From Coleofasciculaceae cyanobacterium SM2_1_6 (GTDB lineage: Bacteria; Cyanobacteriota; Cyanobacteriia; Cyanobacteriales; JAAUUE01): a stretch of 40,745 nt of DNA. Where the stretch lies: assembly GCA_012031635.1 (NCBI GenBank), contig JAAUUE010000002.1, positions 1-40,745 of the forward strand. The letters are read 5' to 3'. Below, one piece after another: positions 6,760-40,333 of the stretch (positions are counted from its first letter, which is position 1; each line of letters starts with the position of its first letter). The notes beneath the pieces were generated by a model. That model ran no database searches. It worked only from the letters and a program-made list of their open reading frames with translations, and was not told the DNA's origin. A program made the position numbers and the translations under genes.

Positions 6760-8523
6760 ATGAGACAAGACATCCGCCGGACAAAAATCGTTGCTACCAT
6801 TGGGCCTGCTAGTAGTAGTCCAGAAGTCCTCAAAGCCATGATTGAAGCAGGGGCTACTACCCTCCGGCTTAATTTTTCCCACGGTACTCATGCCGACCAC
6901 GAACGGAGCATCCGCCTCATCCGTCAAATTTCCTTTGAACTCAATCAACCCGTAGGGATTTTACAGGACCTCCAAGGTCCAAAAATTCGTCTGGGGATCT
7001 TTGAAAAAGGTCCAATTACTCTCCAAAAGGGTGATCCCTTTATTTTGACCTCAGAGATGGTACCGGGAACCCAAGAAATTAGCTCTGTCACCTACGAACC
7101 CCTGGTGGAGGAAGTGCCAGTCGGAGCCAATATTCTTCTGGATGATGGCAAGGTGGAAATGCAAGTGGAGTCGATCGATCACCAAAAGCGGCAACTCCAT
7201 TGTCGGGTCGTGGTGGGGGGAGTCCTTTCCAATAATAAAGGGGTTAATTTCCCCGGTGTGTATCTCTCAATTCCGGCGTTGACGGCGAAAGATAAGCGAG
7301 ATCTGACCTTTGGGCTGGATCAAAATGTGGATTGGGTTGCCCTAAGTTTTGTCCGTAATCCCCAAGATGTTTTAGAAATCAAAGAACTGATCGACCACGC
7401 CGGAAAGCAGGTTCCTGTAATTGTCAAGATCGAGAAACACGAAGCGATTGAGGAAATGGAAGCGATCCTCTCCCTCAGTGACGGGGTCATGGTAGCCCGG
7501 GGCGACTTGGGAGTAGAACTGCCCGCCGAAGAAGTGCCGATTCTGCAAAAGCGCCTGATTGCGACTTCTAACCGCCTCGGCATTCCCGTCATTACCGCCA
7601 CCCAAATGCTCGATAGCATGGTTAGTTCTCCTCGCCCCACCAGAGCCGAAATTAGTGATGTGGCAAACGCTATCCTTGACGGTACTGATGCCGTGATGCT
7701 CTCCAATGAAGCTGCTGTGGGGAAATACCCCGTGGAAGCAGTGGCAACCATGGCTCGCATCGCCAACCGCATCGAACAAGAGAAAAACTTCCCCCGCCTC
7801 GATGATAGTCGCCGCAATATTACTAATGCGATTTCCCATGCCGTCGGTCAAATTGCCGAAAGCCTCGATGCTGCTGCTATTATCACCCTGACCAAAAGCG
7901 GAGCCACTGCCCGGAATGTCTCCAAGTTCCGTCCCTACACCCCAATTCTTGCTGTTACTCCCCATGTGGATGTCGCCCGGAGATTACAGCTAGTCTGGGG
8001 AGTGAAGCCTTTGATTGTCCTTGATTCTCAATCTACTGAGGAAGTTTTTGAAACGGCGATCAACCTAGCCCAAGAGAAAAAAATCCTCACCGGGGGCGAT
8101 CTGGTGGTGATGACGGCGGGGACTCTGCCCGGAGTTTCCGGTTCTACCAACTATTTGAAAGTAGATTTAGTCACGGCAGTGTTGGGCAAGGGTGTGGGTC
8201 TAGGCAACGGGGCAGTAAGTGGTCGCGCACGGGTAGCTCGGACAGCGATCGATACGGCAAACTTCCATGCTGGCGATATCCTTGTGGTGCAGACTACCAA
8301 TGCTGATTATGTGGAGGCAATCCGGAAGGCTGGCGGGATTATTACCGAAGATGAAAATGTTACCTGTCATGCGGCGGTAATTGGTTTAAGATTAGGAATA
8401 CCTGTCATTGTGGGGATGAAAGATGCTACAGAAATTATTCATAATGGTGGCATTCTTACCCTAGATGCTCAACGCGGGATAGTTTCTGCCGGAGCTACGA
8501 ACCCGAATGTTAGCAATATTTAA
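6760..8523 (+). CDS. pyk: pyruvate kinase with a C-terminal PEP-utilizer mobile domain
   Basis: The N-terminus reads RRTKIVATIGPAS...LRLNFSHG, followed by MVARGDLGVE and TQMLDSM. The C-terminal extension GRARVA...GDILVV.TTNADY......GGIITE.....HAAVIGLRLGIPVIVG is the swivelling domain. Confidence 0.95.
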   Translation: MRQDIRRTKIVATIGPASSSPEVLKAMIEAGATTLRLNFSHGTHADHERSIRLIRQISFELNQPVGILQDLQGPKIRLGIFEKGPITLQKGDPFILTSEMVPGTQEISSVTYEPLVEEVPVGANILLDDGKVEMQVESIDHQKRQLHCRVVVGGVLSNNKGVNFPGVYLSIPALTAKDKRDLTFGLDQNVDWVALSFVRNPQDVLEIKELIDHAGKQVPVIVKIEKHEAIEEMEAILSLSDGVMVARGDLGVELPAEEVPILQKRLIATSNRLGIPVITATQMLDSMVSSPRPTRAEISDVANAILDGTDAVMLSNEAAVGKYPVEAVATMARIANRIEQEKNFPRLDDSRRNITNAISHAVGQIAESLDAAAIITLTKSGATARNVSKFRPYTPILAVTPHVDVARRLQLVWGVKPLIVLDSQSTEEVFETAINLAQEKKILTGGDLVVMTAGTLPGVSGSTNYLKVDLVTAVLGKGVGLGNGAVSGRARVARTAIDTANFHAGDILVVQTTNADYVEAIRKAGGIITEDENVTCHAAVIGLRLGIPVIVGMKDATEIIHNGGILTLDAQRGIVSAGATNPNVSNI

Positions 8524-11534: not shown

Positions 11535-13335
11535 TTAGGCAGGAACTTCAAACTGGATATCACCTCCTAAATTAAAGGCGGAATGGATCACCTGTAAAGC
11601 CCGCACTCCCTCATCTTGTGCGACTACACAACTTACCTTGATTTCGGAAGTCGTGATCATGTAAATATTGATCTGCTCCGCAGCTAGGGCTGCAAACATC
11701 CGGGCGGCAGTACCGGGATACCCTACCATCCCCGCACCGACAATACTCACCTTGGCGATCGCTCATCTACCACCACTTCACTACAGGGCAGCATTCCCCC
11801 CAATTTTTGCAAAATCTCTTGGGCGAAGGGAGCATCTCCCTGATGGACGGTAAAGGCAATATCACGGGTAGGGACATCCTCGATTACCCGACAGCGTTGA
11901 GATTGAATAATCATATCCACACTGATATTTGCTTCCGCAAGGGCGTGGAATAGCTGGGCTGCCATGCCGGGACGATCGGGAACGTAGCGGAGGGCTAATT
12001 GGGCTTGATTTAAATCCAGAGCCACGCCCCGGACAGCAGGAGCGATCGAAGCTGGGGCTGCCACGGGGGTCATGAGGGGGGAATTATCTACCTCAAAGCT
12101 ATCACAGAGAGCCTTGATCGCTCGATCGGCTTCAGTCTCAGCAATGATGCAACTAACCTTGACTTCAGAAGTAGTGATCAATCGGATATTTACCCCCGCC
12201 GCCGCTAGGGAATTAAACATTTTGCAGCAATCCCCGGTCTGCCAATCATCCCCGCTCCCGCGATCGCAATCTTGGCAATATCTTTCTCCACCATCACTTC
12301 TACGGGAGTAGTTGCCTCTCCCTGCAAACTAGGAATAATCGCCACGGCTACGGCTTCGGTGCGTTTGGCTTCGGCTCTGGTGACGGTGCAGGCAATGTCG
12401 TTGGTGTTACCTTCGTGGATGGATTGAATGATTAGGTCTATATCAATATTTTTCTGGGAAATTTCCCCAAACAGATGGGCAGCAATACCGGGGCGATCGG
12501 GCACTCGCCAGAGGGAAACTTTTGCTTGGTCGAGGTCAAATTCCACGGCATCCACGGGACGAGTTAACTCCAAATCTGTGAGGGGACGAGCTTGGATCGG
12601 GGGACACAGAACCTTGGTACCAGGATCATCACTCCAGCTAGAACGAACGACCAAATCTACCCCATAGTTCCGGGCAATCTCCACGGCGCGGGGATGGAGA
12701 ACCTTTGCTCCTAAACTTGCCAGTTCTAGCATTTCGTTAGCGGTGATTTCCCGGAGGAGTTGAGCATTGGGGACAAGACGGGGATCGGTGGTGAGAATGC
12801 CGGGAACATCGGTGTAAATCTCGCAGTAGTCAGCTTTGATGGCAGCAGCTAGAGCCACGGCAGAAGTATCAGAGCCGCCCCGACCGAGGGTAGTGATCTC
12901 TAGTTCGCTAGTGTTGCTAATCCCCTGAAACCCAGCAACAACAATCACTTTTCCTTCTTGGAGATGGCGCTGGAGGCGATCGGGGGAAATCTCCAATATC
13001 CTTGCCTTACTGTGGGCTGCTTCAGTAACAATCCCCACCTGCGCCCCGGTGAGCGAAATGGCATCCTGTCCTAATTCTTGCAGCGCCATGGTCAGGAGAG
13101 CGATCGAGACCTGTTCCCCGGTAGACAGCAACATATCCATTTCCCGGCGGCTGGGGTTGCTAGAGATTTCCTTAGCAAGGCTCACCAAGCCATCGGTAGT
13201 TTTGCCCATGGCTGACACCACGACTACAAGGGAATTTCCTGCTTTTACCGTCTGCTGGACTCGCTTCGCCACTGCCTGAATCCGCTCTACCGAACCCACA
13301 GAACTACCGCCGTATTTTTGGACAACTAACGCCAT
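11535..13335 (-). pseudogene. lysC: aspartate kinase (long cyanobacterial form with duplicated ACT domains), split into three ORFs by two 1-nt frameshifts that may be sequence errors
   Basis: ORF 12205..13335 reads [14 protein letters not shown]...[16 protein letters not shown] 11747..12220 continues [29 protein letters not shown] 11535..11750 continues (V)SIVGAGMVGYPGTAARMF. The junctions lie at a T4 run (12220-12223) and near 11762, and one extra base at each restores a single ~600-aa protein. Confidence 0.85.
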
Positions 13336-18730: not shown

Positions 18731-20425
18731 ATGCTGAGATTAGAGCATATTAGTAAGATTTATCCCACCGGGGAAGTATTGAAGGATGTCAACTGGGAAG
18801 TGAAACCGGGCGATCGCATTGGTTTAGTGGGGGTCAACGGAGCCGGAAAATCCACCCAGTTGAAGATTATCACCGGAGAAATGGAACCCACCACCGGAGA
18901 AGTTATTCGTCCCGCCAGCTTAAATATTGCCTACCTCAACCAAGAATTTGAAATCGATACTACCCGCACCGTCAAGGAAGAATTTTGGCGGGCTTTTGGG
19001 GAAGCTAACCAAGTTCATCAATCCCTCATGGAAGTGCATCGGCTGATGGAAACGGCGGATCCAGAGCAGTTGGATGAGCTGATTCACGAGATGGATCGCT
19101 GGCAGCGACAGTTTGAAGCACTTGATGGCTATAACTTAGAGGCGCAGATTGATAAACTGATGCCAGAGTTGGATTTTGAACAGGAAGACGGCGATCGCCT
19201 AGTTAGTTCCTTTAGTGGCGGTTGGCAGATGCGGATGAGTTTGGGCAAGATCATGCTCCAACGCCCGGATGTGTTGCTGTTGGATGAACCGACTAACCAT
19301 TTAGACCTAGAAACCATTGAATGGCTGGAAAATTATCTCCGGGGTTTAACTACACCGATGGTGATTGTCTCCCATGACCGGGAATTTCTCGATCGCCTCT
19401 GTACGCAAATTGTGGAAACCGAGCGGGGTGTGTCTAGTACCTACCTAGGGAATTATTCCAGCTATCTCGCCCAAAAAGCTGAAAGCCAAATGGCGCAACT
19501 CAGTGCCTACGAACGGCAACAGAAAGAAATTGAAAAGCAACAAACCTTTGTCGATCGCTTCCGAGCCAGTGCCACCCGCAGTACCCAAGCCAAGAGCCGG
19601 GAAAAACAACTAGATAAGATCGATCGAGTCGAGGCTCCCATTGGCAGTGTGCGGACGCTGCATTTCCGGTTTCCCCCCGCCCCCCGCAGTGGTTTAGAAG
19701 TGGTGCGGATTAAAGACCTTGCCCACACCTACGGCGATCGAATCCTCTTTTTGGGGGCAGATTTGTTGATTGAAAGGGGCGATCGGATTGCCTTCTTGGG
19801 ACCCAATGGAGCCGGAAAATCTACTCTTTTGCGTTTAATTATGGGCTTAGAAGCACCCAGCGATGGCAGTGTGGAGCTAGGTAAACACAATGTGATCCCC
19901 GGTTACTTTGAGCAGAACCAAGCGGAGGCGCTGGATTTGAGCAAGAAGGTAATTGACACGATCCACGATGAAGTTCCTGACTGGAAAGATGAGGAAGTCC
20001 GGGCTTTGTTAGGCAAATTCCTGTTTAGTGGGGATACTGCCTTTAAGTCGGTGAGCGCCTTGAGTGGGGGGGAGAAGGCAAGATTAGCTCTAGCGAAAAT
20101 GCTGCTCCGTCCGGCGAACTTATTGATCCTTGATGAGCCGACCAATCACCTCGACATTCCCGCCAAGGAAACCCTAGAGGAAGCCCTGCAAAACTATGAC
20201 GGCACAGCATTAATTGTGTCCCACGATCGCTACTTTATCTCTCAAGTAGCCAATAAAATTGTGGAAATTCGGGATGGGGAATTCCGGGTTTATCTAGGGG
20301 ATTATCATTATTATTTAGAAAAGATTGCTGAAGAGAAAGAGAATGCTAGATTAGCAGCGATCGAAGCAGAAAAAGCTGCCAAAGCCAAAGCAAAAAAAGC
20401 CAAAGCTACTGCCAAAAAGAGCTAA
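18731..20425 (+). CDS. ABC-F family ATPase (two ABC cassettes, Lys/Ala-rich tail)
   Basis: Walker A GVNGAGKST and GPNGAGKST, the signatures FSGGWQMR and LSGGEKAR, and an inter-domain linker are present. There are no TM segments. Confidence 0.9.
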   Translation: MLRLEHISKIYPTGEVLKDVNWEVKPGDRIGLVGVNGAGKSTQLKIITGEMEPTTGEVIRPASLNIAYLNQEFEIDTTRTVKEEFWRAFGEANQVHQSLMEVHRLMETADPEQLDELIHEMDRWQRQFEALDGYNLEAQIDKLMPELDFEQEDGDRLVSSFSGGWQMRMSLGKIMLQRPDVLLLDEPTNHLDLETIEWLENYLRGLTTPMVIVSHDREFLDRLCTQIVETERGVSSTYLGNYSSYLAQKAESQMAQLSAYERQQKEIEKQQTFVDRFRASATRSTQAKSREKQLDKIDRVEAPIGSVRTLHFRFPPAPRSGLEVVRIKDLAHTYGDRILFLGADLLIERGDRIAFLGPNGAGKSTLLRLIMGLEAPSDGSVELGKHNVIPGYFEQNQAEALDLSKKVIDTIHDEVPDWKDEEVRALLGKFLFSGDTAFKSVSALSGGEKARLALAKMLLRPANLLILDEPTNHLDIPAKETLEEALQNYDGTALIVSHDRYFISQVANKIVEIRDGEFRVYLGDYHYYLEKIAEEKENARLAAIEAEKAAKAKAKKAKATAKKS

Positions 20426-20601
20426 ATCTAAGTCTAGGATGAGGGCAAAACGGAAAAAAGCGGCTTGGGATATTGCTTATCTAAGTCATCTTCTGTCCCT
20501 TTGATTTTTATGCAGTTGCCCTGATATCAAAATGGCTGGCTAAGCTTAGAAATTAGTAAGATGCTATTATCAAAATCAGATAGTACTACCGAATACTTAC
20601 T

Positions 20602-20862
20602 ATGCCTCTTATCGAACTCCTACCAACCGTTAGTCAACTGACGCATCAAGATAAGCTCCGACTTATTCACTTCCTTTTGCTTGCAATTGCTAGAGAGGAA
20701 GGATGTAGCCTAGAAACTGCTCATAATCAACATTATGAAAATACCCTGATGAAGCAACTAGCGATTACTGAAGCTGTTGTATGGTCACCTCAAGCCGATC
20801 ATAAAGCGGTTCAAGCCTTGTCAGACCTTTTAGTTGCAGCACAGGGTGTATCGAATGCTTGA
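20602..20862 (+). CDS. small helical protein, first gene of protease module 1 (paralog of 23988..24209)
   Basis: It shares the N-terminal motif (L/P)xxQL(T/S)HxDKLxLxxFL with the ORF at 23988..24209. It overlaps the downstream protease gene by 8 nt (ATGCTTGA). Confidence 0.5.
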   Translation: MPLIELLPTVSQLTHQDKLRLIHFLLLAIAREEGCSLETAHNQHYENTLMKQLAITEAVVWSPQADHKAVQALSDLLVAAQGVSNA

Positions 20863-21274
20863 TGGTCATCGTTTTTCATTTACAGAAAAGACTGATAGTT
20901 CTGGTCGCTCTAGCATCTTGCCATACTTACCACTAACCTTGACTAATGGAAAACGTTCAATTGAGGTTATGGCTTTATTGGACACTGGTGCTAGTGTTAA
21001 TGTCTTACCCTACGAAATTGGGTTACAAATGGGAGCAGTCTGGGAAAATCAAACTGTTCAAGTTCCCTTAAGTGGAAACCTTGCTCATAGTGAGTCACGG
21101 GGACTCGTTTTGACCGGGAAAGTTGCACATTTCCCACCTGTTTTACTCGCCTTTGCATGGACTCAAGCAACAGATGTACCAGTAATTTTAGGTCACATGA
21201 ATTTTTTTGCGGAATTCAACGTGTGTTTTTATCGCCATGAGTTAGCTTTTGAGATTTGCCCACTCCAAACATAA
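20855..21274 (+). CDS. retropepsin-like (clan AA) aspartic protease
   Basis: LPYLPLTL.....IEVMALLDTGASVNVLP contains the catalytic D-T-G. The protein is small (~139 aa), as is typical of bacterial retropepsin-like proteins. I prefer the ATG at 20855. Confidence 0.7.
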   Translation: MLDGHRFSFTEKTDSSGRSSILPYLPLTLTNGKRSIEVMALLDTGASVNVLPYEIGLQMGAVWENQTVQVPLSGNLAHSESRGLVLTGKVAHFPPVLLAFAWTQATDVPVILGHMNFFAEFNVCFYRHELAFEICPLQT

Positions 21275-21353
21275 AGTGTTGCTAACCCACCCGCAGCATA
21301 ACTAGATCTTTAGTACGAAGTGATTAATCAAAAGCTTTCTATATAACATATCG

Positions 21354-21403
21354 TATAGGGCAGATAACCAGAAACTTGACATTCAGCCTATCTGCCCTAT
21401 AGT
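21354..21403 (+). promoter_or_regulatory. near-consensus sigma70-type promoter (TTGACA-16 nt-TATAGT) embedded in a 13-bp perfect inverted repeat
   Basis: TATAGGGCAGATA (21354-21366) pairs with TATCTGCCCTATA (21389-21401). TTGACA lies at 21376-21381 and TATAGT at 21398-21403. No ORF follows for about 350 nt. Confidence 0.4.
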
Positions 21404-21598
21404 CAGATTAGGCAGAAAAATTCCGTCTAATACATAGTTAGACTTTAGTCCCTAGTTTCCGATCGATTATCGGTCAAGGATCAGCATCAGCAAGCAGAGA
21501 CTTATTAGTTTAATCCATCAGTTTGGGTGAGTCGATTCGCTTTGCGATCCCTGCGGGAATCGAGCGATCGACCAAGTCAAGTTAGCGAGGGTTGGCTT

Positions 21599-21685
21599 GT
21601 CTAACACTTCATTGCAGCGGACGGTTGGGCGATCGTTTGTTGAGTGTTAAAATCTAATCACCGCCGCTGAACTTCACCGTTAGGC
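21599..21685 (+). other. 87-bp imperfect palindrome A with attC-like outer boxes (GTCTAAC ... GTTAGGC)
   Basis: GTCTAAC (21599-21605) fits RYYYAAC and GTTAGGC (21679-21685) fits GTTRRRY. The inner stem is CAGCGG-a-CGGT / ACCG-CCGCTG with a bulged A. The block between the outer box and the stem does not pair well. It shares TGCAGCGGA, CCGCTGA and ACCGTTAG with element B. Confidence 0.4.
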
Positions 21686-21762
21686 GGCTCAAGGTTATCT
21701 GTGGGGGCGCAGCCGAAAGACCATTAGTGTGACACTTCAATCACAATCAGAAATTGCCTGGT

Positions 21763-22838
21763 ATGGGACACGTTTTCAAGCCAAGTACAATACCGACTGT
21801 TGACGAGTACGTGTCGGGTTTATCTGCAATTCGTTCTCGTATCAGTGAGTCGCAGTTTCGTTTGCTGCAAGAGCAGTATTATGCTCCAAATCGTACTACT
21901 ACAGCGACCCAACTTGCAGAGTTAATAGGGATTGAGAGTGGGCGTGGAGCGATCAATCTGATGTATGGTTGGCTAGGGCGCTTATTCTGTGAAGCAACAG
22001 GGTTTGAGCCGAGTCAGCGAGAAGTTGGCACACATCGCTGGTGGTCTGTGTGGTCTAGCGGATATGAAGAGCGCAATCCCTATCGTTTTTTTGGAAGATG
22101 CACCCAGAAGTTGCTGAAGCTTTAGAACATTTAGGTTGGGTGAGTTCTAATTCGGCAATAAGTCGCTATCAGCAAATTTTTAGTGAATTAGTTTATGAGC
22201 GAGACGATCGTAGTCCTCCCGATGCCCGAAGGCAGGCACAATTTAAGATTGGTTGGGAAAACGCCGCCATGCAAAGGAGAACTTATACAAGTGAAACTTT
22301 AAATTCAGTTCTTACTTGGAATAATTTGGGCTATCGCTTTGGGCTGAAATTAGGACAGTGTTCTAATTCGGAAATTCAAGCAGCTTATGACTTTTTAGCT
22401 CAAGAATATCAAATCAATTCCTCTGGCTCAAAGCAGCTAAATATAACCAATATTTATCCTGATGAGGTGGCTTCAGAGGAGATTTTTCGAGAAGGGTCAG
22501 TACGTCAAGTTTCAGTTAATGCCTATGAGCGAGATCCTAAAGCACGCCAGAAGTGCATCGATTATTATGGCTTAAGTTGCTCAGTTTGCAGTTTTAATTT
22601 TGGTGAGTTCTTTGGAGAGTTAGGTGAAGGCTTTATCCATGTTCACCACTTACGCCCTATTTCAGAGATTGCCAAAGAGTATGAAGTTGACCCCGTAAAA
22701 GATTTACGCCCAGTTTGCCCAAATTGTCACGCTATGATTCATCGCCGTTCTCCACCACTGAGTATTGAGGAGCTTCAAGTTTTGGTGAGAAATTCTAAAG
22801 TTCAACCGCCTCCTAACAATTCGGGTGCAGCGGATTGA
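21763..22838 (+). pseudogene. HNH endonuclease (COG3183-like HNH at the C-terminus, unknown N-terminal domains), split by a 1-nt frameshift in a T7 run
   Basis: ORF 21754..22125 ends ...ERNPYRFF and ORF 22098..22838 begins MHPEVAEALEHLGW. An eighth T in the run at 22086-22092 would give YRFFWKMHPEVAEAL. The C-terminus reads NAYERDPKARQKCIDYYG.SCSVC.FNF....G..G.GFIHVHHL.P......EY.VDP..DLRPVCPNCHAMIH. Confidence 0.8.
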
Positions 22839-22897
22839 CCGAAGCCGCTTGGGGGAGATGCAAAGATCACGGCAACCGCTGACCCGAACCGTTAGAT
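22811..22897 (+). other. 87-bp imperfect palindrome B with attC-like architecture at the 3' end of the HNH gene
   Basis: The sequence is TCCTAAC aa TTCGGGT g CAGCGG a TTG a CCG [28-nt loop] CGG CAA CCGCTG ACCCGAA cc GTTAGAT. About 24 bp pair in five blocks. Three single-base bulges all lie on the 5' arm. A 2x2 unpaired spacer follows the outer boxes. The outer boxes match RYYYAAC at 6/7 and GTTRRRY at 7/7. Confidence 0.5.
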
Positions 22898-22982
22898 TGA
22901 TTAGAATGCTAGACGCTTTGGGAAAATTACGATGAGGACGATCGCCGATCTTGTAGGATACATTAATGAAATGTAATGCGCC
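22891..22982 (+). repeat. 92-bp island junction repeat, copy 1
   Basis: GTTAGATTGATTAGAATGCTAGACGCTTTGGGAAAATTACGATGAGGACGATCGCCGATCTTGTAGGATACATTAATGAAATGTAATGCGCC is about 89% identical to copy 2. Confidence 0.9.
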
Positions 22983-23075
22983 TTATCTTCATTATTAACA
23001 AAAGCAATCTATTCAGAGCGATTTCTGGTTAGCTATAATGTCGGATAAGGCAGTAATTAAGGAAAATTTACAATC

Positions 23076-23348
23076 ATGGCAGTTCGTCAACCCCGCTATA
23101 GTAAAGAAGAATTTGCCCGAAGAGGCGATCTCATTTATCAAACGCAAATACGCCCACAAGTTGAGGCAGGTAATCATGGCAAAATTGTAGCGATCGACAT
23201 TGAGACTGGAGACTTTGAAATTGATGCTCATGAAATCACTGCCTGCGATCGGCTCGAAGCCCGTCATCCAGATGCTCAAGTCTGGATTGTTCGAGTCGGT
23301 TCTCACCATGTTCGCCGATTTGGTGGACGCACAAAGAGAGCAGTATGA
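23076..23348 (+). CDS. small hypothetical protein, first gene of protease module 2
   Basis: A 90-aa ORF with a TATAAT box at 23035-23040 upstream. It overlaps the downstream protease ORF by ATGA. I recall this type of partner next to clan AA proteases in cyanobacteria. Confidence 0.55.
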   Translation: MAVRQPRYSKEEFARRGDLIYQTQIRPQVEAGNHGKIVAIDIETGDFEIDAHEITACDRLEARHPDAQVWIVRVGSHHVRRFGGRTKRAV

Positions 23349-23722
23349 TCACAGGAATTGTTAATGCCGATTTTGAGGCGATTATCTCGCTTTCGATATG
23401 CGGCTCTGATGGAAAAATTCACGCATAAGATGCGGTTGTTGATACAGGCTTTAACGGTTGGCTTTCATTGCCTCCAGACCTAATTGATCATTTGCATCTC
23501 AAATGGAAAAGACGGGGACGCGCTATTCTTGGAGATGGTAGCGAATGCGTTTTTAATATCTATGAAGGCGTTGTAATGTGGGATGGAGATTATCTGACTA
23601 TCCCCATTGATGAAGCTGATTCGGAACCTCTTGTGGGAATGTCATTGATGGAAGGCTATCAACTCACAGTTCAAGTATTTGAAGCAGGTATCGTAGAAAT
23701 CCGAAAAGTAAGCGCTGTCTAA
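23345..23722 (+). pseudogene. clan AA aspartic protease (DTGF type) with an in-frame TAA at 23426-23428
   Basis: The translation reads MITGIVNADFEAIISLSICGSDGKIHA*DAVVDTGFNGWLSLPPDLIDHLHLKWKRRGRAILGDGSECVFNIYEGVVMWDG.... The stop lies just before the catalytic DTG, and the frame continues into ORF 23468..23722. Confidence 0.7.
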
Positions 23723-23729
23723 CTAGATC

Positions 23730-23821
23730 GTGAGATTGATTAGAATGCTAGACGCTTTGGAAAAATTACGATAAGGACGATCGCCGATCTTGTAGGCTGT
23801 ATTAATGAAATACAACGCACC
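23730..23821 (+). repeat. 92-bp island junction repeat, copy 2
   Basis: GTGAGATTGATTAGAATGCTAGACGCTTTGGAAAAATTACGATAAGGACGATCGCCGATCTTGTAGGCTGTATTAATGAAATACAACGCACC is preceded by GTCTAAC-TAGATC (23717-23729). Confidence 0.9.
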
Positions 23822-23839
23822 TCTTTTTTTCCAGCTAAA

Positions 23840-23995
23840 CTATAAAACATTCACACTAGAGCCAGTGTCCAAAAGTCCTGAAACACTCAGGGATTGATTT
23901 TGATACATTAATGTCAATGGTAAATAAGGAAGCGTACTTAATGCTCCAAGACTGGGATTTACCTCAGTGAAAGCAAATCTTACTTTATTAGCCAT
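23840..23995 (-). pseudogene. 3'-truncated retropepsin-like protease (51 codons), second gene of protease module 3
   Basis: The minus-strand translation MANKVRFAFTEVNPSLGALSTLPYLPLTLMYQNQSLSVSGLLDTGSSVNVL* parallels the first third of the 20855..21274 product. It stops about 18 nt from the end of repeat copy 2. Its start overlaps the upstream gene by ATGGCTAA. Confidence 0.6.
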
Positions 23996-24209
23996 GAGTC
24001 AATTCTTGCTTCTCTTTTAATGCTTGAGCAAGAATGGCGGCAGCCTCAAAAGAGTCATGTAAACCTTGTCTAGGCAGGTCATCTTGGATAGATAGGGGTA
24101 CAATACCAGAATCTTTGAGCAACTCCGCTACAAGAAAGTTAAGTAATAAAAGTTTATCAGAGTGAGACAATTGCCTAAGCAGGGGAACAAATTCAGTAGT
24201 TGTCAGCAT
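23988..24209 (-). CDS. small helical protein, first gene of protease module 3 (paralog of 20602..20862)
   Basis: MLTTTEFVPLLRQLSHSDKLLLLNFLVAELL aligns with MPLIELLPTVSQLTHQDKLRLIHFLLLAIA. Confidence 0.55.
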   Translation of the reverse strand: MLTTTEFVPLLRQLSHSDKLLLLNFLVAELLKDSGIVPLSIQDDLPRQGLHDSFEAAAILAQALKEKQELTHG

Positions 24210-24309
24210 AGATTTTAAGAAAACTATAGATTTTGATCTCTTTTACTCCGCCCCAGTATAACACTACCTTCGTGCTAACCCTTATCCATGAAAGCCGTCT
24301 AACTAGACC

Positions 24310-24355
24310 GTTAGATTGATTAAAATACTAGACGCTTTGGAAAATATGGTTAGCA
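24310..24355 (+). repeat. island junction repeat, copy 3 (5' 46 bp only)
   Basis: GTTAGATTGATTAAAATACTAGACGCTTTGGAAAAT is preceded by GTCTAAC-TAGACC (24297-24309) and then diverges. Confidence 0.8.
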
Positions 24356-24359
24356 TCTA

Positions 24360-24380
24360 TTGATCCCATTTTGGGATCAA
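24360..24380. promoter_or_regulatory. perfect 9-bp inverted repeat (TTGATCCCA ttt TGGGATCAA) next to a TATTAT box, a candidate higBA operator/promoter
   Basis: Read directly. It lies 17 nt upstream of the higB ATG, with TATTAT at 24383-24388. Type II TA operons are typically autoregulated at palindromic operators. Confidence 0.4.
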
Positions 24381-24396
24381 GCTATTATTTAGGCGT

Positions 24397-24690
24397 ATGC
24401 GTATCTTGTCCCGTAGCACCCTACGAAATTTCTGGGAGACTCATCCAGATGCCGAAGAAGCACTGAAGACTTGGTACTACGAAGCGTCTCATGCTAATTG
24501 GCAGAGTCCAGTTGATGTTAAGGCTGCTCATAGTAGTGCCAGTATCGTTGCGAACAACCGTGTGGTTTTCAATATCAAAGGCAACACCTATCGGTTAATT
24601 GTGGCAATTCGTTATGACATTGGTATTATTTTTATTCGATTTATTGGCACTCATGCTGAGTATGACAAAGTAGATGCAGAAATAATATGA
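24397..24690 (+). CDS. higB: type II toxin HigB (mRNA interferase, HigB_toxin family)
   Basis: MRILSRSTLRNFWETHPDAEEALKTWYYEA..ANW.SP.DVKA...SASIV.NNRVVFNIKGN.YRLIV.I.Y......IRFIGTHAEYDKVDAE closely matches the family consensus as I remember it. Confidence 0.9.
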   Translation: MRILSRSTLRNFWETHPDAEEALKTWYYEASHANWQSPVDVKAAHSSASIVANNRVVFNIKGNTYRLIVAIRYDIGIIFIRFIGTHAEYDKVDAEII

Positions 24691-24704
24691 ATGGAGGCTA
24701 ATGT

Positions 24705-25082
24705 ATGGAGATACGTCCAATTAGAACACACACCGATTACCAGCAAGCTCTTCAAGAGATTGAGCTATTGTTTGATGTAGCCCCAAGTACACCCGAACAA
24801 GATCGACTAGATATTCTCAGTACTCTGGTAGAAGCTTATGAAAAGAAACACTTTCCAATTGAGTTACCTGATCCGATCGAAGCAATTCATTACTACATGG
24901 ACACCCGTGGGTGGTCTCGACGTGATTTGGAGCCATGTCTAGGCAGTCGAGCCAGAGTATCTGAGGTTCTATCTCGTAAACGTTCATTGACCTTAGAGAT
25001 GATTCGGAAACTGCATCAAGAGTTGGGAGTTCCTGCTGAGATTCTCATTCAGCCTTATGAGTCGGCACAAATCCCTGCCTAA
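24705..25082 (+). CDS. higA: HigA-type HTH antitoxin
   Basis: IRT..DYQQAL.EIE.L.D..P.TPE.DRLD.L.TLVEAYE.KH.PI..PDPIEAI...M...G.SR.DLEP.LGSRARVSEVLSRKR.LTLEMIRKLH..LG.PAE.L is the canonical partner of HigB. Confidence 0.9.
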   Translation: MEIRPIRTHTDYQQALQEIELLFDVAPSTPEQDRLDILSTLVEAYEKKHFPIELPDPIEAIHYYMDTRGWSRRDLEPCLGSRARVSEVLSRKRSLTLEMIRKLHQELGVPAEILIQPYESAQIPA

Positions 25083-25085
25083 TCA

Positions 25086-25172
25086 TTCTGATGAGAATAC
25101 TAGACGCTTTGGAAAATTATGAGGAGGACGATCGCCGATCTTGTAGAGTATGTTAATGAACTGTAACGCGCC
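25086..25172 (+). repeat. island junction repeat, copy 4
   Basis: TTCTGATGAGAATACTAGACGCTTTGGAAAATTATGAGGAGGACGATCGCCGATCTTGTAGAGTATGTTAATGAACTGTAACGCGCC starts 4 nt after the higA stop. Confidence 0.85.
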
Positions 25173-25191
25173 TCATGTCTATTTATGTAAT

Positions 25192-25851
25192 TTAATTGTT
25201 GAGCTGTTCTCTGACCCATTGGCGGACATGGCGCATTAAACTTTTTTCGCCCACAGTTTGACTAAGTTCCAAAAATGACCTCAGCACAACAGCATCAAAC
25301 CTTGGCAACACCATGGAAACTTCCCTGGGTTGATATCCTTGGTCTCCTAAACTCCAAATCGTTAAGCTATCACGATCGCACTGCCATACCTCCATCACTC
25401 CCAAAGCCGCATAGATTCCTAGCCGATTCATAGAACTACTAGTGTGATCAACCTCGATCGCTAAATCGGGAGGCGGATCAATAGTTAGATCGATTACATC
25501 CTTACCACGCACTGCTAACTCGTTTTGAATGTAATAGCACTCATCCGCTTCTAAACCCTTGCGTAGGTCTTCTCGTGTCCAAGTTGTTGAACCTAAACTA
25601 CAAATTTCAATCCCTAATTCTTCTGTCATCACTTCCACAAAACGACCAAGTAGTTTTTTATAGCGTTCGTGGGGGGGTAGTAGCCTGAGAATCTCCAAAA
25701 TTCCGTCATCATAAGTTAATCGCATTCCCGGTTGCGATGCCAAATCCTGTACCAAATTCTGATAAGTACCCCATTGAATCCCGGAAAGAATAGTTGTATT
25801 GATGGGAAATGGTTGTGCCAAATTCGAGTTAGAGGCGATCGCAGCAACCAT
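25192..25851 (-). CDS. Uma2-family (DUF820) endonuclease
   Basis: W..Y..L.......R..Y.DG.LEI....P.HE........EV...ELG.......STT........G.E.D.CYY........PPDLAIEV..TSSS..RL.IYA.LGV.E.W shows the PD-(D/E)XK-like Uma2 pattern. Confidence 0.85.
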   Translation of the reverse strand: MVAAIASNSNLAQPFPINTTILSGIQWGTYQNLVQDLASQPGMRLTYDDGILEILRLLPPHERYKKLLGRFVEVMTEELGIEICSLGSTTWTREDLRKGLEADECYYIQNELAVRGKDVIDLTIDPPPDLAIEVDHTSSSMNRLGIYAALGVMEVWQCDRDSLTIWSLGDQGYQPREVSMVLPRFDAVVLRSFLELSQTVGEKSLMRHVRQWVREQLNN

Positions 25852-26001
25852 AGTTTTCTCCTTGATCTAGAGATTTTTGTTTTTTGAGCTATGCACTTAA
25901 TCTTAATTTGATTTTGAACCAGAGAGGATCGATCGCTACTCTAGGCTTAAGGATTTCTAGTTGTAAATTATGGTTTAAAATCCGACGATAATTATCAATA
26001 A

Positions 26002-26184
26002 AACGTCAGTTCAGGGTAAGAAATACCCCTCATCCCCAACCCCACTTCGACAAGCTCAGTGCATCGCTTCGCCCATAAGGGGCGTTAGGCATAAGACTTC
26101 CCGAAGGGTAGGGGAGTAAGACGAAATTTTCTTGTTCCCTCTCCCAGAACGGGGGAGGGTTCCAGTTTATCCCAAACTCACGTT
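26002..26184. mobile_element. MITE-like long imperfect palindrome (outer arms AACGTCAGTTCAGGGTAAGAAA / TTTATCCCAAACTCACGTT; C-rich/G-rich inner arms)
   Basis: The outer arms are approximately reverse-complementary. The inner CCCCTCATCCCCAACCCC ... GGGGAGTAAGA ... CCCTCTCCC..GGGGGAGGG blocks are shared with the element at 34797-34934. There is no coding capacity. Confidence 0.5.
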
Positions 26185-26273
26185 AATAAAATAGACTTCT
26201 TGCCTGAATCCATTTTTGGTATGATTTTCTAATAGTTTGATATACATAATTTACTATTCACGCAGGAGGTCTA

Positions 26274-27041
26274 ATGATTCTTGATCATCCAGTTGTCAAT
26301 AGAAATATATTCTTCCCCAGATCGACTACCATTGAGCCGAGTTTCTTTGTGGAAGTAGAAGATGCTAACATTGCTTGCTATCTACAGCAGCCTTTTCCTG
26401 ATGCTGGAACTATTTTATACTTTCACGGGAATGGGGAACTTGCCTCGGAATATGCAACAGATTATGCCGATTTGTTTCTAGAAAGGGGGGTTAATGTCTG
26501 CTTTGTTGAGTATCGGGGTTATGGGATGTCAACGGGTGTACCTACTTTGATCAATATGCTGGGTGATGGAGAAAAAGTTTTCCAAAAATTGGGGATTGCC
26601 CCCGAAAAGTTGGTGGTTTTTGGTCGATCGCTGGGCAGCTTGTATGCGATCGAGCTAGTTCACCGCATCCCCCAGATTGCCGGACTAGTGCTAGAAAGTG
26701 CCATTGCTAATTTACGGGAGAGTTTACCAATTATTGATGAGATCGAGGAGCTAAAGCCCTCAGAGATGGAACTTATGGCGGAGATTGATACCTATTTTAA
26801 TCTACAACAAAAACTCCAAAGCTATACTGGGCATCTGCTGGTATTACACGCCGAACACGATCGAGCCTTAAACCGTTCCCACGCCGATCGATTGCATACT
26901 TGGGCTGGCAGTCCTCACAAGAAATTGGTGATATTTCCCCAAGGCAACCACAATTCAATCTTATACGCAAATTTTCCGAGTTATTTACAAGAACTAGCCG
27001 AATTTTTGCAGCAAGTAGGAGTTCGATCGTCTATTCCATAG
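26274..27041 (+). CDS. alpha/beta-fold hydrolase
   Basis: The nucleophile elbow GRSLGS, the oxyanion-hole region HGNG and the C-terminal GNHN are present. The RBS GGAGG lies before the ATG. Confidence 0.75.
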   Translation: MILDHPVVNRNIFFPRSTTIEPSFFVEVEDANIACYLQQPFPDAGTILYFHGNGELASEYATDYADLFLERGVNVCFVEYRGYGMSTGVPTLINMLGDGEKVFQKLGIAPEKLVVFGRSLGSLYAIELVHRIPQIAGLVLESAIANLRESLPIIDEIEELKPSEMELMAEIDTYFNLQQKLQSYTGHLLVLHAEHDRALNRSHADRLHTWAGSPHKKLVIFPQGNHNSILYANFPSYLQELAEFLQQVGVRSSIP

Positions 27042-34934: not shown

Positions 34935-35235
34935 TTATTTCATTCCATTTTTGTTTATGTTCAATGATTTAGGATCGCTATAGAAGTAGATGATTGATAT
35001 TTGGTGACAAAGGTAGCCATCGACAGCATCCGGTCAAGCAAGGCAAGGTGACGGCATCAGGCAAGATGAGTGATGATGTCAGAAAAAAATTTAGCAAGTA
35101 TTCTTAGACAGGCGGGGATTGAAATCATGGATAAGTATCTGATTGTTTTAGAAAAAAGGGAAACTGGTTTTTCGATAATCATTGCAGAGCTGTTAAGACA
35201 GTTAGCATAGAAATTTGAGACTAGAGACTAGAAAT

Positions 35236-35667
35236 ATGGAAGAGTTGTTAGAACTACGGACGCTATTAATGGGGGGGAATATCTCCGAGGCTTTGCTGTT
35301 GGTGGAGGAGATGACCGAGATGAGCAAAGATGACAAAATCAATAAGATATCTAGCTTTAGTATTATTTTGCTAATGCATTTAATTAAACAGCAAGCTGAG
35401 AAACACTCAACCCGATCGTGGGATGTGACTATTCGGAATGCTGCTCGCCAAATTCAACGATCGAATAAACGCCGGAAGGCAGGGGGCTATTATCTTTCAT
35501 CGGCAGAATTATTAGAAACCTTAACCGATGCTTATGAATCTGCCTTGGATGCTGCTGCCCTAGAAGCCTTTGGGGGGCACTATGAATCGGCGGAGTTGGG
35601 GGCTATGGTCGATCAAGAGGGCATAATTCAAGAGGCGATCGCCTTAATTCTGGAAATTGAAAATTAG
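35236..35667 (+). CDS. distant DUF29-like protein
   Basis: The central HLIKQQAEKHSTRSWDVTIRNAARQIQR parallels HLLKWQYQPEKRSKSWRVTIKEQRREIR of the DUF29 array. The size is similar (~144 aa from the ATG at 35236). Confidence 0.45.
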   Translation: MEELLELRTLLMGGNISEALLLVEEMTEMSKDDKINKISSFSIILLMHLIKQQAEKHSTRSWDVTIRNAARQIQRSNKRRKAGGYYLSSAELLETLTDAYESALDAAALEAFGGHYESAELGAMVDQEGIIQEAIALILEIEN

Positions 35668-37182: not shown

Positions 37183-37710
37183 ATGTCCAAGATATCAGAA
37201 ATTATTCACCTCGGTAATCCTCTCCTCCGGGAAGTAGCGAAACCAATACAAAAGATAGAGGATCCCAGTCTGCAAAATCTCATCCAAGAGTTGATCAGCA
37301 CTACGATCGACCACAACGGTGTGGGTATTGCTGCCCCTCAAGTTGCCCAGTCTCTACAATTGATCATTGTTGCCTCCCACCCTACTCCCCGCTATCCCCA
37401 AGCCCCCCAGATGGAGCCGATCGCCATGATCAATCCCCGCATTGTTAACCACAGTGGCGAGCCAGAGAAGGGCTGGGAAGGATGCCTGAGCGTGCCGGGA
37501 ATTCGGGGATTGGTTCCTCGTTATCCGCAAATTGTAATTGAATATACAGATATTCATAATCAAGTTTGCTGCCAAGAATTAACTGGGTTTGTGGCGAGAA
37601 TTTTTCAACACGAGTATGATCATCTCCAAGGGATAGTTTTTCTCGATCGAGTGGAAAGCACCCAAGAAATGATTACAGAACAAGAATATCAGAAGTTATT
37701 TACTGAGTAA
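37183..37710 (+). CDS. def: peptide deformylase
   Basis: The motifs [17 protein letters not shown] and QHEYDHLQG are present. Confidence 0.9.
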
Positions 37711-38329: not shown

Positions 38330-38425
38330 ACAGTTACTCGTACTGAGCGGAGTCGAAGTATCAGTGAACAGTGAACAGTTATCAATTACTTGTATTGAGC
38401 GGAGCCGAAATATCAATGATCACAG
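38326..38425. repeat. two tandem, diverged copies of a ~45-bp dispersed repeat (CAGTGAACAGTTA..T(C/T)GTA(C/T)TGAGCGGAG(T/C)CGAA(G/A)TATCA), with a CAGTGAA heptamer duplication
   Basis: Read directly. The GAGCGGAGCCGAA core is the same as in the kinase insertion at 8774-8910. Confidence 0.6.
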
Positions 38426-38432
38426 TAAATCT

Positions 38433-38885
38433 ATGGAAAGTAGTTTGTATGAGGCGGATTTTTATAGATGGACGATCGAGCAATCCCAGTTTTTACAGTT
38501 GGGGAAGTTTGATGCTTTAGATTTGGAAAACCTAGCAGAGGAGATCGCATCTTTGGGGAAGCAACAACGGCAGGAACTTAGAAACCGATTGGGAGTATTG
38601 ATTGGGCATTTACTAAAGTGGCAGTATCAACCAACCAGAAAGACTCGCAGTTGGCAGTTAACTATTGAATTACAAAGATCGGAAATTGAAGAACTATTGA
38701 TGGATAACCCTAGTTTAAAACCCTATTTAGTTGAGGTAATTCCCAAAGCCTTTAAGTTGGGATTATCTCTAGTATTTATGGAAACTCCCTTAAAAAAACG
38801 AGATATTCCTTCTAATTGTCCTTATACTTTAGAGCAAATTTTAGATGAGAATTTTCCTGATGATATTGATAGAGACTTTGATTAA
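38433..38885 (+). CDS. DUF29 protein, array copy 1 (subtype A)
   Basis: LYEADFYRWTIEQSQFLQLGKFD.LDLENLAEEIASLGKQQRQELRNRLGVLIGHLLKWQYQP fits DUF29. The ATG at 38433 gives the 150-aa size shared by the paralogs; the ORF-track start at 38364 would read through the repeat. Confidence 0.8.
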   Translation: MESSLYEADFYRWTIEQSQFLQLGKFDALDLENLAEEIASLGKQQRQELRNRLGVLIGHLLKWQYQPTRKTRSWQLTIELQRSEIEELLMDNPSLKPYLVEVIPKAFKLGLSLVFMETPLKKRDIPSNCPYTLEQILDENFPDDIDRDFD

Positions 38886-38911
38886 TCTAGTATTAACATA
38901 GAGTGTGAATT

Positions 38912-39364
38912 ATGACATCAAAACTATATGAAATAGATTTTCATGGGTGGACGATCGAGCAATCCCAGTTATTAGAATTGGGGAAGTTTGATGGGTTAGA
39001 TTTAAGCAACTTAGCTGAGGAGATCGCATCTTTGGGCAGACAGCAGCGACAAGAATTAGAGAACCGTTTGGCTATTTTATTGGGGCATTTTCTCAAGTGG
39101 ACTTTACAGCCAGAGCTACGAGGTAAAAGCTGGAAGTTGACAATTAAGGAGCAACGCAGACAAATTCAAAGATTGATCAAAGGCAATCCTAGCTTAAAGC
39201 CCTATTTATCAGAAGCAATTATTGAAGGTTATGCCTCAGCTTTAATTTTAGTTGCTCAAGAAACTCCTTTTAATTACCAAGATTTACCTCAAGAATGCTC
39301 TTTTAAGATTGATCAGATTTTTGATGAGAAGTTCCCTGACGGTATAGAAATAGAACCTTACTAA
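38912..39364 (+). CDS. DUF29 protein, array copy 2 (subtype B)
   Basis: LYEIDFHGWTIEQSQLLELGKFDGLDLSNLAEEIASLGRQQRQELENRLAILLGHFLKW..QPELRGKSW. Confidence 0.85.
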   Translation: MTSKLYEIDFHGWTIEQSQLLELGKFDGLDLSNLAEEIASLGRQQRQELENRLAILLGHFLKWTLQPELRGKSWKLTIKEQRRQIQRLIKGNPSLKPYLSEAIIEGYASALILVAQETPFNYQDLPQECSFKIDQIFDEKFPDGIEIEPY

Positions 39365-39399
39365 AACTTGAATAAGCCCTGAATAAAAAGTTATAAATT

Positions 39400-39852
39400 A
39401 TGACATCACAACTATACGAAACCGATTTTTATAGATGGACGATCGAGCAATCTCAGTTTTTACAATTGGGCAAGTTTGATAGGTTAGATTTAAGCAACTT
39501 AGCAGAGGAGATCGCATCTTTGGGGAAGCAACAACGGCAGGAACTTAGAAATCGATTAGGTGTATTGATTGGGCATTTACTGAAATGGCAATATCAGCCA
39601 GCAAAAAGAACCCGGAGTTGGCAGGTAACTATTAGTTTGCAACGGCGAGAAATTAGAGACATCTTAGCTGAAAATCCTAGTTTACAACCTTATTTAGATA
39701 CAGCGATTCAAGCAGGTTTTTCCCTAGGTATAGATTTAGTCTTAATAGAAACTCCCATTAAGAAAAAAGATTTACCTACAGAATGTATTTATACGGTGGA
39801 GCAAATTCTTGATAGTAATTTTCCTGATGGGATTGAAACAGAGTTTGATTAA
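39400..39852 (+). CDS. DUF29 protein, array copy 3 (subtype A)
   Basis: The N-terminal ~65 codons are nearly identical to copy 1 at the nucleotide level, while the C-terminal half has diverged. Confidence 0.85.
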   Translation: MTSQLYETDFYRWTIEQSQFLQLGKFDRLDLSNLAEEIASLGKQQRQELRNRLGVLIGHLLKWQYQPAKRTRSWQVTISLQRREIRDILAENPSLQPYLDTAIQAGFSLGIDLVLIETPIKKKDLPTECIYTVEQILDSNFPDGIETEFD

Positions 39853-39883
39853 GTTGATTAGGTTGATTAGATTGGGTTGAATT

Positions 39884-40333
39884 ATGGTATCAAAATTATA
39901 CGAAACCGATTTTTATAGATGGACGATCGAGCAGTCCCAGTTTTTACAATTGGGCAAATTTGATGATTTAGATTTAGAAAACCTAGCAGAGGAGATCGCA
40001 TCTTTGGGCAGACAAGAAAAGCAAGAATTAAGAAATCGATTAGGTATCTTAATTGGGCATCTACTTAAATGGCAGTATCAGCCCGAAAAGCGGAGTAAAA
40101 GTTGGCGAGTAACGATTAAAGAACAACGGCGAGAAATTCGGTTAATTATCGATGATAATCCTAGCCTGAAGCCCTACCTTGAAGAAGCAATTTTCCGGGG
40201 CTATGCCCAAGGGTTAGATTTAGTAGTGAAGGAAACGCCCCTAGATTATCGAGATTTACCTAAAGATTGTCCCCTTAGCGTAGAGCAGATTTTTGATCCT
40301 AACTTTCCGCCGGGACTAGAAACAGAATTTTAG
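39884..40333 (+). CDS. DUF29 protein, array copy 4 (subtype A)
   Basis: LYETDFYRWTIEQSQFLQLGKFDDLDLENLAEEIASLGRQEKQELRNRLGILIGHLLKWQYQPEKRSKSW. Confidence 0.85.
   Translation: MVSKLYETDFYRWTIEQSQFLQLGKFDDLDLENLAEEIASLGRQEKQELRNRLGILIGHLLKWQYQPEKRSKSWRVTIKEQRREIRLIIDDNPSLKPYLEEAIFRGYAQGLDLVVKETPLDYRDLPKDCPLSVEQIFDPNFPPGLETEF

Follow-up and report, generated by a model that had tools for sequence, protein, structure and literature searches.

We have analysed a repeat of about 92 bp in a stretch of 40,745 nucleotides (hereafter the window) of contig JAAUUE010000002.1 from Coleofasciculaceae cyanobacterium SM2_1_6 (assembly GCA_012031635.1). The explanation we lean towards, with slightly better than even confidence, is that the repeat does not constitute a separate gene. 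It would instead form the conserved 5' end of a toxin-antitoxin-like module that recurs, consisting of a 90-aa gene and a clan-AA aspartic-protease-like gene, and lying in a cassette region that resembles a cluster of attC sites lacking an integrase (CALIN). The repeat is a composite of an R' core, a spacer of about 40 nt and a second half with a near-match to the highly iterated palindrome HIP1, the tetranucleotide GTAG and a hairpin. It was recognised as composite because the second half was found alone elsewhere. The window contains four copies, all co-oriented:

22891-22982, forward strand: copy 1, the complete unit.
23730-23821, forward strand: copy 2, whose box reads GTGAGAT and whose likeness to copy 3 continues leftward to 23714.
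24310-24345, forward strand: copy 3, the 5' half only, with the homology stopping where the higBA module begins (24346).
about 25089-25172, forward strand: copy 4, part of the first half plus the second half, without the GTTAGAT box, beginning with TGATGAGAAT.

Copies 1 and 2 aligned without gaps at 89% identity. The 13-mer CTAGACGCTTTGG occurred exactly four times in the window, every time on the forward strand; with up to two mismatches allowed, 0.85 occurrences were expected by chance and none of 100 shuffles reached four. The 20-mer GACGATCGCCGATCTTGTAG was present in three exact occurrences (vs. 0 expected). This confirmed that the repeat is real and far above chance, and that there are four co-oriented copies, as had been proposed in an earlier reading of the sequence alone (the sequence-only reading). 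The same reading had the copies begin at GTTAGAT, which was true of copies 1 and 3 but not of copy 2, with GTGAGAT, or of copy 4, without the box. The HIP1 core that it had described was present as a near-HIP1 motif only: the core of the repeat, ACGATCGCC, agrees with HIP1 at 7 of 8 positions.

Scans with CTAGACGCTTTGGRAAA returned at least 193 loci in all, 73 in genome_contigs and at least 120 in metagenome_contigs. Among the matches listed, the only true homologue was L003, a Microcoleus metagenome-assembled genome, the others being chance 17-mers; a scan of viral_contigs with the second-half 17-mer gave 39 matches, all due to chance. Here and below, L and X numbers designate retrieved loci and runs, respectively.

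The GTTAGAT box of copy 1 is the R' core of the second of two attC-like sites:

21599-21685, forward strand: attC-like site 1 (R'' GTCTAAC, R' GTTAGGC), obtained from an R''/R' scan and a seed of the covariance model R1 (82.8 bits).
22811-22897, forward strand: attC-like site 2 (R'' TCCTAAC, R' GTTAGAT), directly left of copy 1.
21684-22891, forward strand: HNH-endonuclease gene cassette (Pfam HNH), with an open reading frame (ORF) at 21754-22838 that is frameshifted in the window.

Both sites are imperfect palindromes of 87 nt, inside the range of about 57-141 nt for attC sites, and conform to the R''/R' core consensus (RYYYAAC/GTTRRRY), with the R'' of site 2 opening with T instead of R. The bottom strand of site 2 folded with z = -3.96, and 0 of 200 shuffles were equally good. 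We have aligned four seeds, namely the two window sites, a site on a Scytonema plasmid and the site of L196, whose hairpin occupies the equivalent position before the L196 copy of the repeat. The consensus comprises a 7-bp R box followed by stems of 7, 6 and 3 bp, with compensatory changes in 8 of its 23 pairs, and site 1 fits it with compensatory pairs. On one ('') arm an invariant C and an invariant T were unpaired in all four seeds. The canonical extrahelical bases of attC sites are T and G, and one base identity thus differs here. The model R1 was built from this four-seed structure. The attC of the aadA cassette of class 1 integrons also has a CTAAC-AATTC start and a GTTAGAT end.

Cassettes cut and joined at G|TT are expected to show complementarity between the R' tail and the R'' flank. 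For the HNH cassette, the R' tail of site 1 (AGGCGGC) and the R'' flank of site 2 (GCCTCCT) were complementary at 6 of 7 positions; for the PIN_8 cassette of L196, the tail AGACCTC at its start was complementary to the R'' flank of the cassette itself, GAGGTCT, at 7 of 7. In runs X1 and X25, 3-4 contigs matched only 22813-22899, with different flanks in each. Judged from sequence, 21599-21685 and 22811-22897 look like integron-type attC hairpins flanking the HNH cassette. The frame of the HNH gene changes near 22098-22125, and the frameshift was borne out by translation; a related contig of run X25, with one additional C after 22085, probably carries the intact form. A further candidate attC, behind the Mrr gene of L194, was rejected: R''/R' cores were present and the overall hairpin was unconvincing (z = -0.7).

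The same attC family was found on another replicon. Over 89 nt, site 2 shared 93% identity with one on Kovacikia minuta plasmid pA (L265). A stretch of 20 kb there contained 10 R1 matches in a single orientation (38-80 bits), of which the first six were checked, and each of these lay 20-40 nt behind a forward-strand ORF. Along this array, the bases following GTT in one site were the reverse complement of those that precede AAC in the site after it: of the five neighbouring pairs, four were compared and all matched, two exactly (AGCCTGC/GCAGGCT and AGCTGGC/GCCAGCT) and two with one mismatch. L265 covers 22186-62274 of record NZ_CP083583.1, and the array (20002-39862 of L265) comprises at least 10 attC-like sites with cassette-type ORFs; no integrase was present among the ORFs listed in the ~4.5 kb upstream of it, nor any attC-like site in the 20 kb upstream. 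As a separate observation, plasmid pSYLB of Synechocystis PCC 6714 (L266/L267, record 77714-86000) encodes a truncated Xer/integron-like tyrosine recombinase of 167 aa, whose gene faces a run of toxin-antitoxin pairs, and L266 has a weak attC-like match at 7976-8069 (E = 0.3).

The repeat was found right of the crossover in at least three independent cassette contexts (the HNH cassette of the window, the PIN_8 cassette of L196/L003 and the attC of run X2). In the window, L196 and run X2, GTTAGATTGA plus the repeat came after three different attCs, and a loose end of run X2 reads ...CCGCTGATGCAGATGA. The other members of the attC family continued into unrelated sequence from 22894-22899 onward. 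Hence, the left edge of the repeat appears to be the cassette crossover point, with the remainder of the repeat lying rightward. The 92-bp unit itself is not an attC, because it does not fold: the four copies gave z = +0.35, +0.37, +0.94 and -1.09, and values of about 0 to -1 ruled out an attC or any other structured element. Moreover, an attC would have to be a palindrome ending in R', and here the conserved stretch lies 3' of GTTAGAT.

To the right of copy 1 lies a two-gene module (23076-23722), preceded by a promoter-like site:

22983-23039, forward strand: operon promoter region, AATCTATTCAGAGC..TTCAGA-16-TATAAT (promoter-like score 10/12).
23076-23348, forward strand: 90-aa gene, the first gene of the module.
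23345-23722, forward strand: clan-AA aspartic-protease-like gene, a pseudogene with an in-frame TAA at 23426.

The 90-aa protein belongs to no Pfam or NCBIfam family. Its own family counted 5951 homologues across cyanobacteria, all of about 90 aa, and the best 120 of these were 80-89% identical and came from several cyanobacterial orders. At the loci fetched (window, L255, L262 and L263), an overlapping protease-like gene of ~125-132 aa lies behind the 90-aa gene. In L262/L263, from a different lineage, two paralogous 90-aa genes are preceded by the second half together with the promoter region (conserved at 2417-2500 and 4122-4205 of L263), with the pattern GCGATCGCC..CTTGTAG..TTAATG..GTAAT.C, then AATCTATT.GGAGC...TATAAT. 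L255 retains the promoter part alone. In runs X1, X3 and X4 we have seen a recurring junction of the protease stop ... GTCTAACTAG with the repeat, and a contig of run X2 had the order module, full repeat, promoter remnant and higBA. The second half and the promoter-like site appear, from this conservation, to be the leader of the 90-aa/protease operon, in another lineage as well.

We have examined the two halves of the repeat separately. In copy 1 they are:

22898-22936, forward strand: first half, a TAGA-box spacer of ~40 nt, TGATTAGAATGCTAGACGCTTTGGGAAAATTACGATGAG.
22937-22982, forward strand: second half, with the near-HIP1 motif, GTAG and a decayed REP-like hairpin (REP, repetitive extragenic palindrome).

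The second half occurred without the first half in L194 (12891-12949 and 13555-13648), in L200 and in four contexts of run X3. Its conserved structure consists of GTAG, a 9-bp stem GGTGYGTTA/TAACGCACC and an 8-nt loop ATGAARTG. A plasmid of Pseudanabaena galeata (L252) has the perfect stem GGATGCGTT/AACGCATCC, and a plasmid of Gloeothece PCC 7822 (L254) has the hairpin GTAGGGTGTGTTAGCGAAGCGTAACGCACC. GTAG was kept throughout the Microcoleus-type copies and also in Gloeothece, with GGAG in its place in Pseudanabaena. The REP-type hairpin folded well in L196, L252 and L254 (z = -3.2 to -6.7). Three pairs of its helix were changed on both sides among nine copies, with a covariation score that 5 of 500 shuffles reached, which is suggestive only; the G-U pairs in the helix indicate the forward strand. 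By analogy, the second half fits the GTAG-tagged REPs of cyanobacteria. We have also considered it as the 3' end of a lost gene and rejected this, as no copy had an extended upstream open frame.

The first half was found only in this lineage (the window copies, L196/L003 and related runs). It is missing in L194, where the second half at 12891-12949, behind the Mrr gene, starts 4 nt past an R'-like GTTAGAA; in L211 and L194 a stretch weakly similar to the first half follows higA. The TAGA boxes of the first half are possibly scars or duplications of the R' box. Palindromic sites were found to the left of two copies and at the end of a further element, which we call element A:

23717-23821, forward strand: copy 2 with its left extension, the protease stop plus GTCTAAC-TAGATC-GTGAGAT, then both halves.
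24297-24345, forward strand: copy 3 with its left extension, GTCTAAC-TAGACC-GTTAGAT plus the first half, cut off by higBA.
21364-21443, forward strand: element A, with an internal hairpin, a promoter-like site and the terminal simple site GTCTAAT-ACATA-GTTAGAC.

The hairpin of element A folded with z = -5.8, and its promoter-like site TTGACA-16-TATAGT (21376-21403, score 11/12) is directed into the cassettes. Copies of element A are present in L194 (11820-11928 and 17016-17063), L196 (7690-7768) and L211 (11820-11927), and in these three loci the element stands directly after the ABC-F gene; it is multi-copy (11 contigs in run X3). In L196 the PIN_8 cassette begins at the GTT of element A, and the tail AGACCTC lies at this junction. 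The element is a candidate for an attI site with the cassette promoter Pc, or for an ORF-less cassette. Three related proposals were rejected or weakened. The idea that the first half repeats the end of element A in inverted form was unconvincing (best p ~0.002 among 32 comparisons), and a long palindrome made of the protease 3' end and the first half was not significant (z = -1.62 and -0.11 on the two strands). The stretch 21296-21313 (GCATAAC-TAGATC-TTTAG) was weakened as a left insertion junction, as it resembles the sequence following ABC-F in L196 and L194.

Taken together, the explanation that we favour would run as follows. The R' core GTTAGAT would be the crossover at which attC-ended cassettes were joined, and the hairpin would act, or would formerly have acted, as an RNA-level terminator or stabiliser insulating the module from read-through. 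The four copies may have arisen via duplication or re-insertion of the module with its leader, followed by erosion. Copy 1 would still head a module, and copy 2 would be a leader only, followed by a degenerate promoter remnant. Copy 3, with what would be left of a protease 3' end in front of it, would have been cut by higBA at a GGAAAA microhomology; copy 4 would have come to lie beside the Uma2 gene.

Several observations weigh against this explanation. We have found no integron integrase or tyrosine recombinase among the scanned window ORFs or in the gene tables of L194, L196 and L211; the arrangement is termed CALIN-like because the integrase is absent from the window and the examined flanks. 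Site 1 on its own folded weakly (z = -1.05), and the attC scoring rests on our own model R1 and not on the curated attC model of IntegronFinder. The weak similarity between the first half and element A was not significant after multiple testing. The 20-bp palindrome of copies 2 and 3 (GTCTAAC-N6-GTKAGAT) is superfluous to a pure leader. The REP-type hairpins of the window folded no better than shuffles (z = -1.0, -1.3 and +1.0) and appear decayed, which makes it doubtful that the second half still has a function. Finally, the second half was present in about 4-7 contigs per related assembly, which would be low for a classic REP family, although short Logan contigs may undercount the copies.

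The palindrome of copies 2 and 3 resembles a double-stranded integron simple site (2R-spacer-1R architecture), and the repeat could accordingly be read as an attI-like "landing pad" formed by GTCTAAC-N6-GTTAGAT and the TAGA boxes. These boxes (TTAGAAT and CTAGACG), about one helical turn apart, would serve as accessory integrase-binding sites, and the modules between the repeats (90-aa/protease and higBA) would be exchanged by a tyrosine recombinase encoded elsewhere. Such a role would be compatible with the 7-6-7 palindrome in both copies, with the like site that ends element A and at whose GTT cassettes begin, with the three contexts in which attC cassettes have arrived at the repeat's GTT, and with the direct repeat copies that bracket modules. 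The site of copy 3 was also a weak match to R1 (E = 0.2) and folded with z = -2.4. However, GTCTAA doubles as the last codon and stop codon of the protease gene, and the L262 homologue ends in GACTAAT without a GTTAGAT behind it. Moreover, the higBA borders lie at GGAAAA microhomology and not at a GTT box, copy 4 has no box, and no recombinase gene is nearby. We consider a landing pad unlikely. A variant in which a selfish 90-aa/protease module would carry an attI-like landing pad in its leader, with attC cassettes captured in trans, is in our view quite improbable. The second half could otherwise be a mobile REP/REPIN-like element, spread by a REP-associated tyrosine transposase (RAYT) or an IS200-type single-strand transposase; separate insertions at each site would then make the 92-bp unit accidental. 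The GTAG tag with its hairpin is suggestive of this, as are the occurrences without the first half in unrelated contexts and in the distant Pseudanabaena, Gloeothece and the L263 organism, and GTAG REPs are documented in cyanobacteria (PMC3733652). Yet filled and empty sites differ by replacement and not by clean insertion (copy 4 vs. L194 and L211), the flanking promoter region is co-conserved in copy 1, L194B and L263, and the copy number appears low. In the sequence examined no RAYT gene was noticed, no search aimed at RAYT having been made. A mobile REP as the whole explanation is thus regarded as improbable.

The sequence-only reading had offered a small RNA or leader, the 5' end of a cassette, or part of a recombination site; the last two came close to the evidence, and the small RNA, leader and mini-ORF did not. 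On the small-RNA or peptide view, the unit would be transcribed from the TAGAAT box and contain a 6-bp hairpin under selection, or would encode a peptide of 14-15 codons. Copies 1 and 2 each form a perfect 6-bp Watson-Crick hairpin via different substitutions, and the reported exchange of TACATT..AATGTA for TGTATT..AATACA is real. Across nine copies, 96% of the cells of this hairpin were pairable when G-U was allowed, and the forward strand was indicated as the RNA. A random-primed metatranscriptome contig spans 22889-23026 at ~88% identity; the RNA evidence otherwise consists of metagenome contigs (85-90% identity), and the poly-A run gave 0 reads. The selection on structure that had been read from the exchange did not hold up: in the covariation check on nine copies one pair had changed on both sides, 227 of 500 shuffles matched this (91-227 of 500 over the covariation comparisons), and folding gave z of about -1 to +1. 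The TAGAAT -10 scored in copy 1 alone (9/12), using the CTGACC of the upstream attC as -35. As part of a conserved sigma-70 promoter, with hexamers 16-18 nt apart, the -10 box failed, with no conserved -35 and a regional count at chance level (9 promoter-like sites in 20400-25400 vs. 9.5 ± 3.1 in shuffles), and the copies with only the second half lack the supposed promoter. Mini-ORFs can be read in copies 1 and 4 as had been described, and copy 2 does lack the start and stop. Start codon, frame and stop were nevertheless not conserved: of the 8 copies that end in -NE(M/L/V) before the stop, 2 had the start codon (copies 1 and 4), and the frame in L196 is broken by a 7-bp deletion. The stop position was retained in 8 of 9 copies, and the conserved TAA belongs to the REP stem (TAACGC). 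An Rfam search of the repeat gave nothing at the gathering score and nothing relevant at E <= 10. With no Rfam family, no conserved -35 and covariation at shuffle level, a small RNA, leader or peptide gene is very improbable.

The conserved 5' end of a 90-aa/protease module, which remains our preferred explanation, lies in a region (20426-26273) that appears, from comparison of related contigs, to be an insertion hotspot between the ABC-F and hydrolase genes. Ten related contigs (L201-L210) have 75 nt between the ABC-F gene and the Hydrolase_4 gene behind it; in the window the latter lies at 26274. The ABC-F protein of the window was 98-99% identical to Microcoleus-group proteins; exact-protein look-ups with the window ABC-F and Uma2 proteins gave no record. 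The hotspot is filled by a PIN_8 gene in L196/L003, by Mrr, a relE-like pair, higA and an insertion sequence in L194, and by a 169-aa gene, higBA and Uma2 in L211. The filling of the window consists, in order, of an 86-aa plus 146-aa Asp-protease-like pair, the frameshifted HNH gene, the 90-aa plus protease-like pair, an inverted remnant, higBA and Uma2. Several of these modules (higBA, 90-aa/protease) come without an attC. The 86-aa/146-aa pair at 20602-21274 recurs, truncated and inverted, at 23840-24209 (reverse strand), and 20978-21007 and 23843-23872 form a 30-nt inverted repeat (87% complementary).

24346-25084, forward strand: higB/higA toxin-antitoxin module (Pfam HigB_toxin, 2.8e-33, and HTH_3), with sharp borders.
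25192-25851, reverse strand: Uma2 gene, convergent with higA, with copy 4 between them.

The higBA stretch 24343-25084 was 96% identical to L211. Its left edge at 24342-24346 was also present in L211 and in runs X2, X4, X20 and X26; both borders (24346 and 25084) were the same in other strains and lie at GGAAAA microhomology. Copy 4 is syntenic with the L196/L003 copy and is missing in L194, L211 and runs X2-X4, where ~33-38 other nt separate higA from Uma2.

Two further observations concern the surroundings. Upstream of the hydrolase gene, 26002-26145 is a variable repeat region rich in CCCC...GGGG; in metatranscriptome contigs from related organisms, the stretch 26037-26110 is either absent or different. 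Farther away, four tandem DUF29 genes (38364-40333) stand behind a peptide deformylase gene (37183-37710), with a weaker DUF29 match at 35215-35667; the R1 search gave no attC-like site in the DUF29 region.

These data describe an integron-type cassette hotspot beside a housekeeping ABC-F gene in a filamentous cyanobacterium of the Microcoleus group. Its cargo (HNH, PIN_8, Mrr, higBA, relE-like pair) differed in each strain examined. The attC family shared at 93% identity with the plasmid of Kovacikia, a cyanobacterium of another order, suggests that cassettes are exchanged between orders of cyanobacteria. There is also a lesson for annotation: where a conserved repeat combines a -10-like box with a hairpin and a mini-ORF, as here, a regulatory RNA is easily assumed, although the unit is most likely a cassette junction and leader. 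If the landing pad were true, CALINs could be seeded by mobile toxin-antitoxin-like modules in cyanobacteria, which would bear on the origin of integrase-less attC clusters.

We have finally compared the region with known systems. CALINs are arrays of attC sites with no integrase next to them (Cury et al. 2016, PMC4889954), and integrons have been reported in Cyanobacteria (PMC4889954). As in attC arrays, the sites described here are imperfect palindromes of ~87 nt with RYYYAAC/GTTRRRY at the ends and bases left unpaired on one arm. They are co-oriented, stand just 3' of ORFs and vary in sequence with the structure preserved. Complementarity links the R' tail to the next R'', and the cargo includes toxin-antitoxin and nuclease genes. 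Unlike CALIN arrays, the window has only two firm attC sites and no IntI within 40 kb, several modules are attC-less, and a non-folding 92-bp repeat lies 3' of the crossover.

GTAG-tagged REPs include the cyanobacterial families GTAG-12, -15 and -16 (Di Nocera et al. 2013, PMC3733652), and GTAG-15/-16 elements were monitored in Gloeothece (Cyanothece) PCC 7822 (PMC3733652). The second half shares with them an unpaired GTAG 5' of a 9-bp stem-loop with G-T pairs and a location downstream of genes, between unidirectional or convergent ORFs, and a near-identical hairpin occurs in Gloeothece PCC 7822. The stems of GTAG REPs measure 5-13 bp. This likeness is one of description and not of a family consensus sequence, and no numbered family is assigned. 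The copies number ~4-7 per genome here, possibly an undercount, against tens to thousands for such REPs, and the second half has features of its own, i.e., the 8-nt ATGAARTG loop, the near-HIP1 stretch 5' of GTAG and the decayed window copies.

In the sedentary chromosomal integrons of Vibrio cholerae, the repeat is the attC itself, located between small cassettes, many of them toxin-antitoxin. Our region likewise has a near-uniform unit between small modules in a single orientation, but the conserved unit here begins with the R' core and extends from it into the following cassette. The pdif modules of Acinetobacter plasmids are bounded by XerC/D-bound 11-6-11 sites in alternating orientation and often contain toxin-antitoxin pairs. 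Small modules bracketed by short palindromic sites (7-6-7 here) are common to both, whereas the copies here are all direct. The element thus belongs to known kinds, combining integron-type cassettes with palindromes like those of the GTAG REPs.

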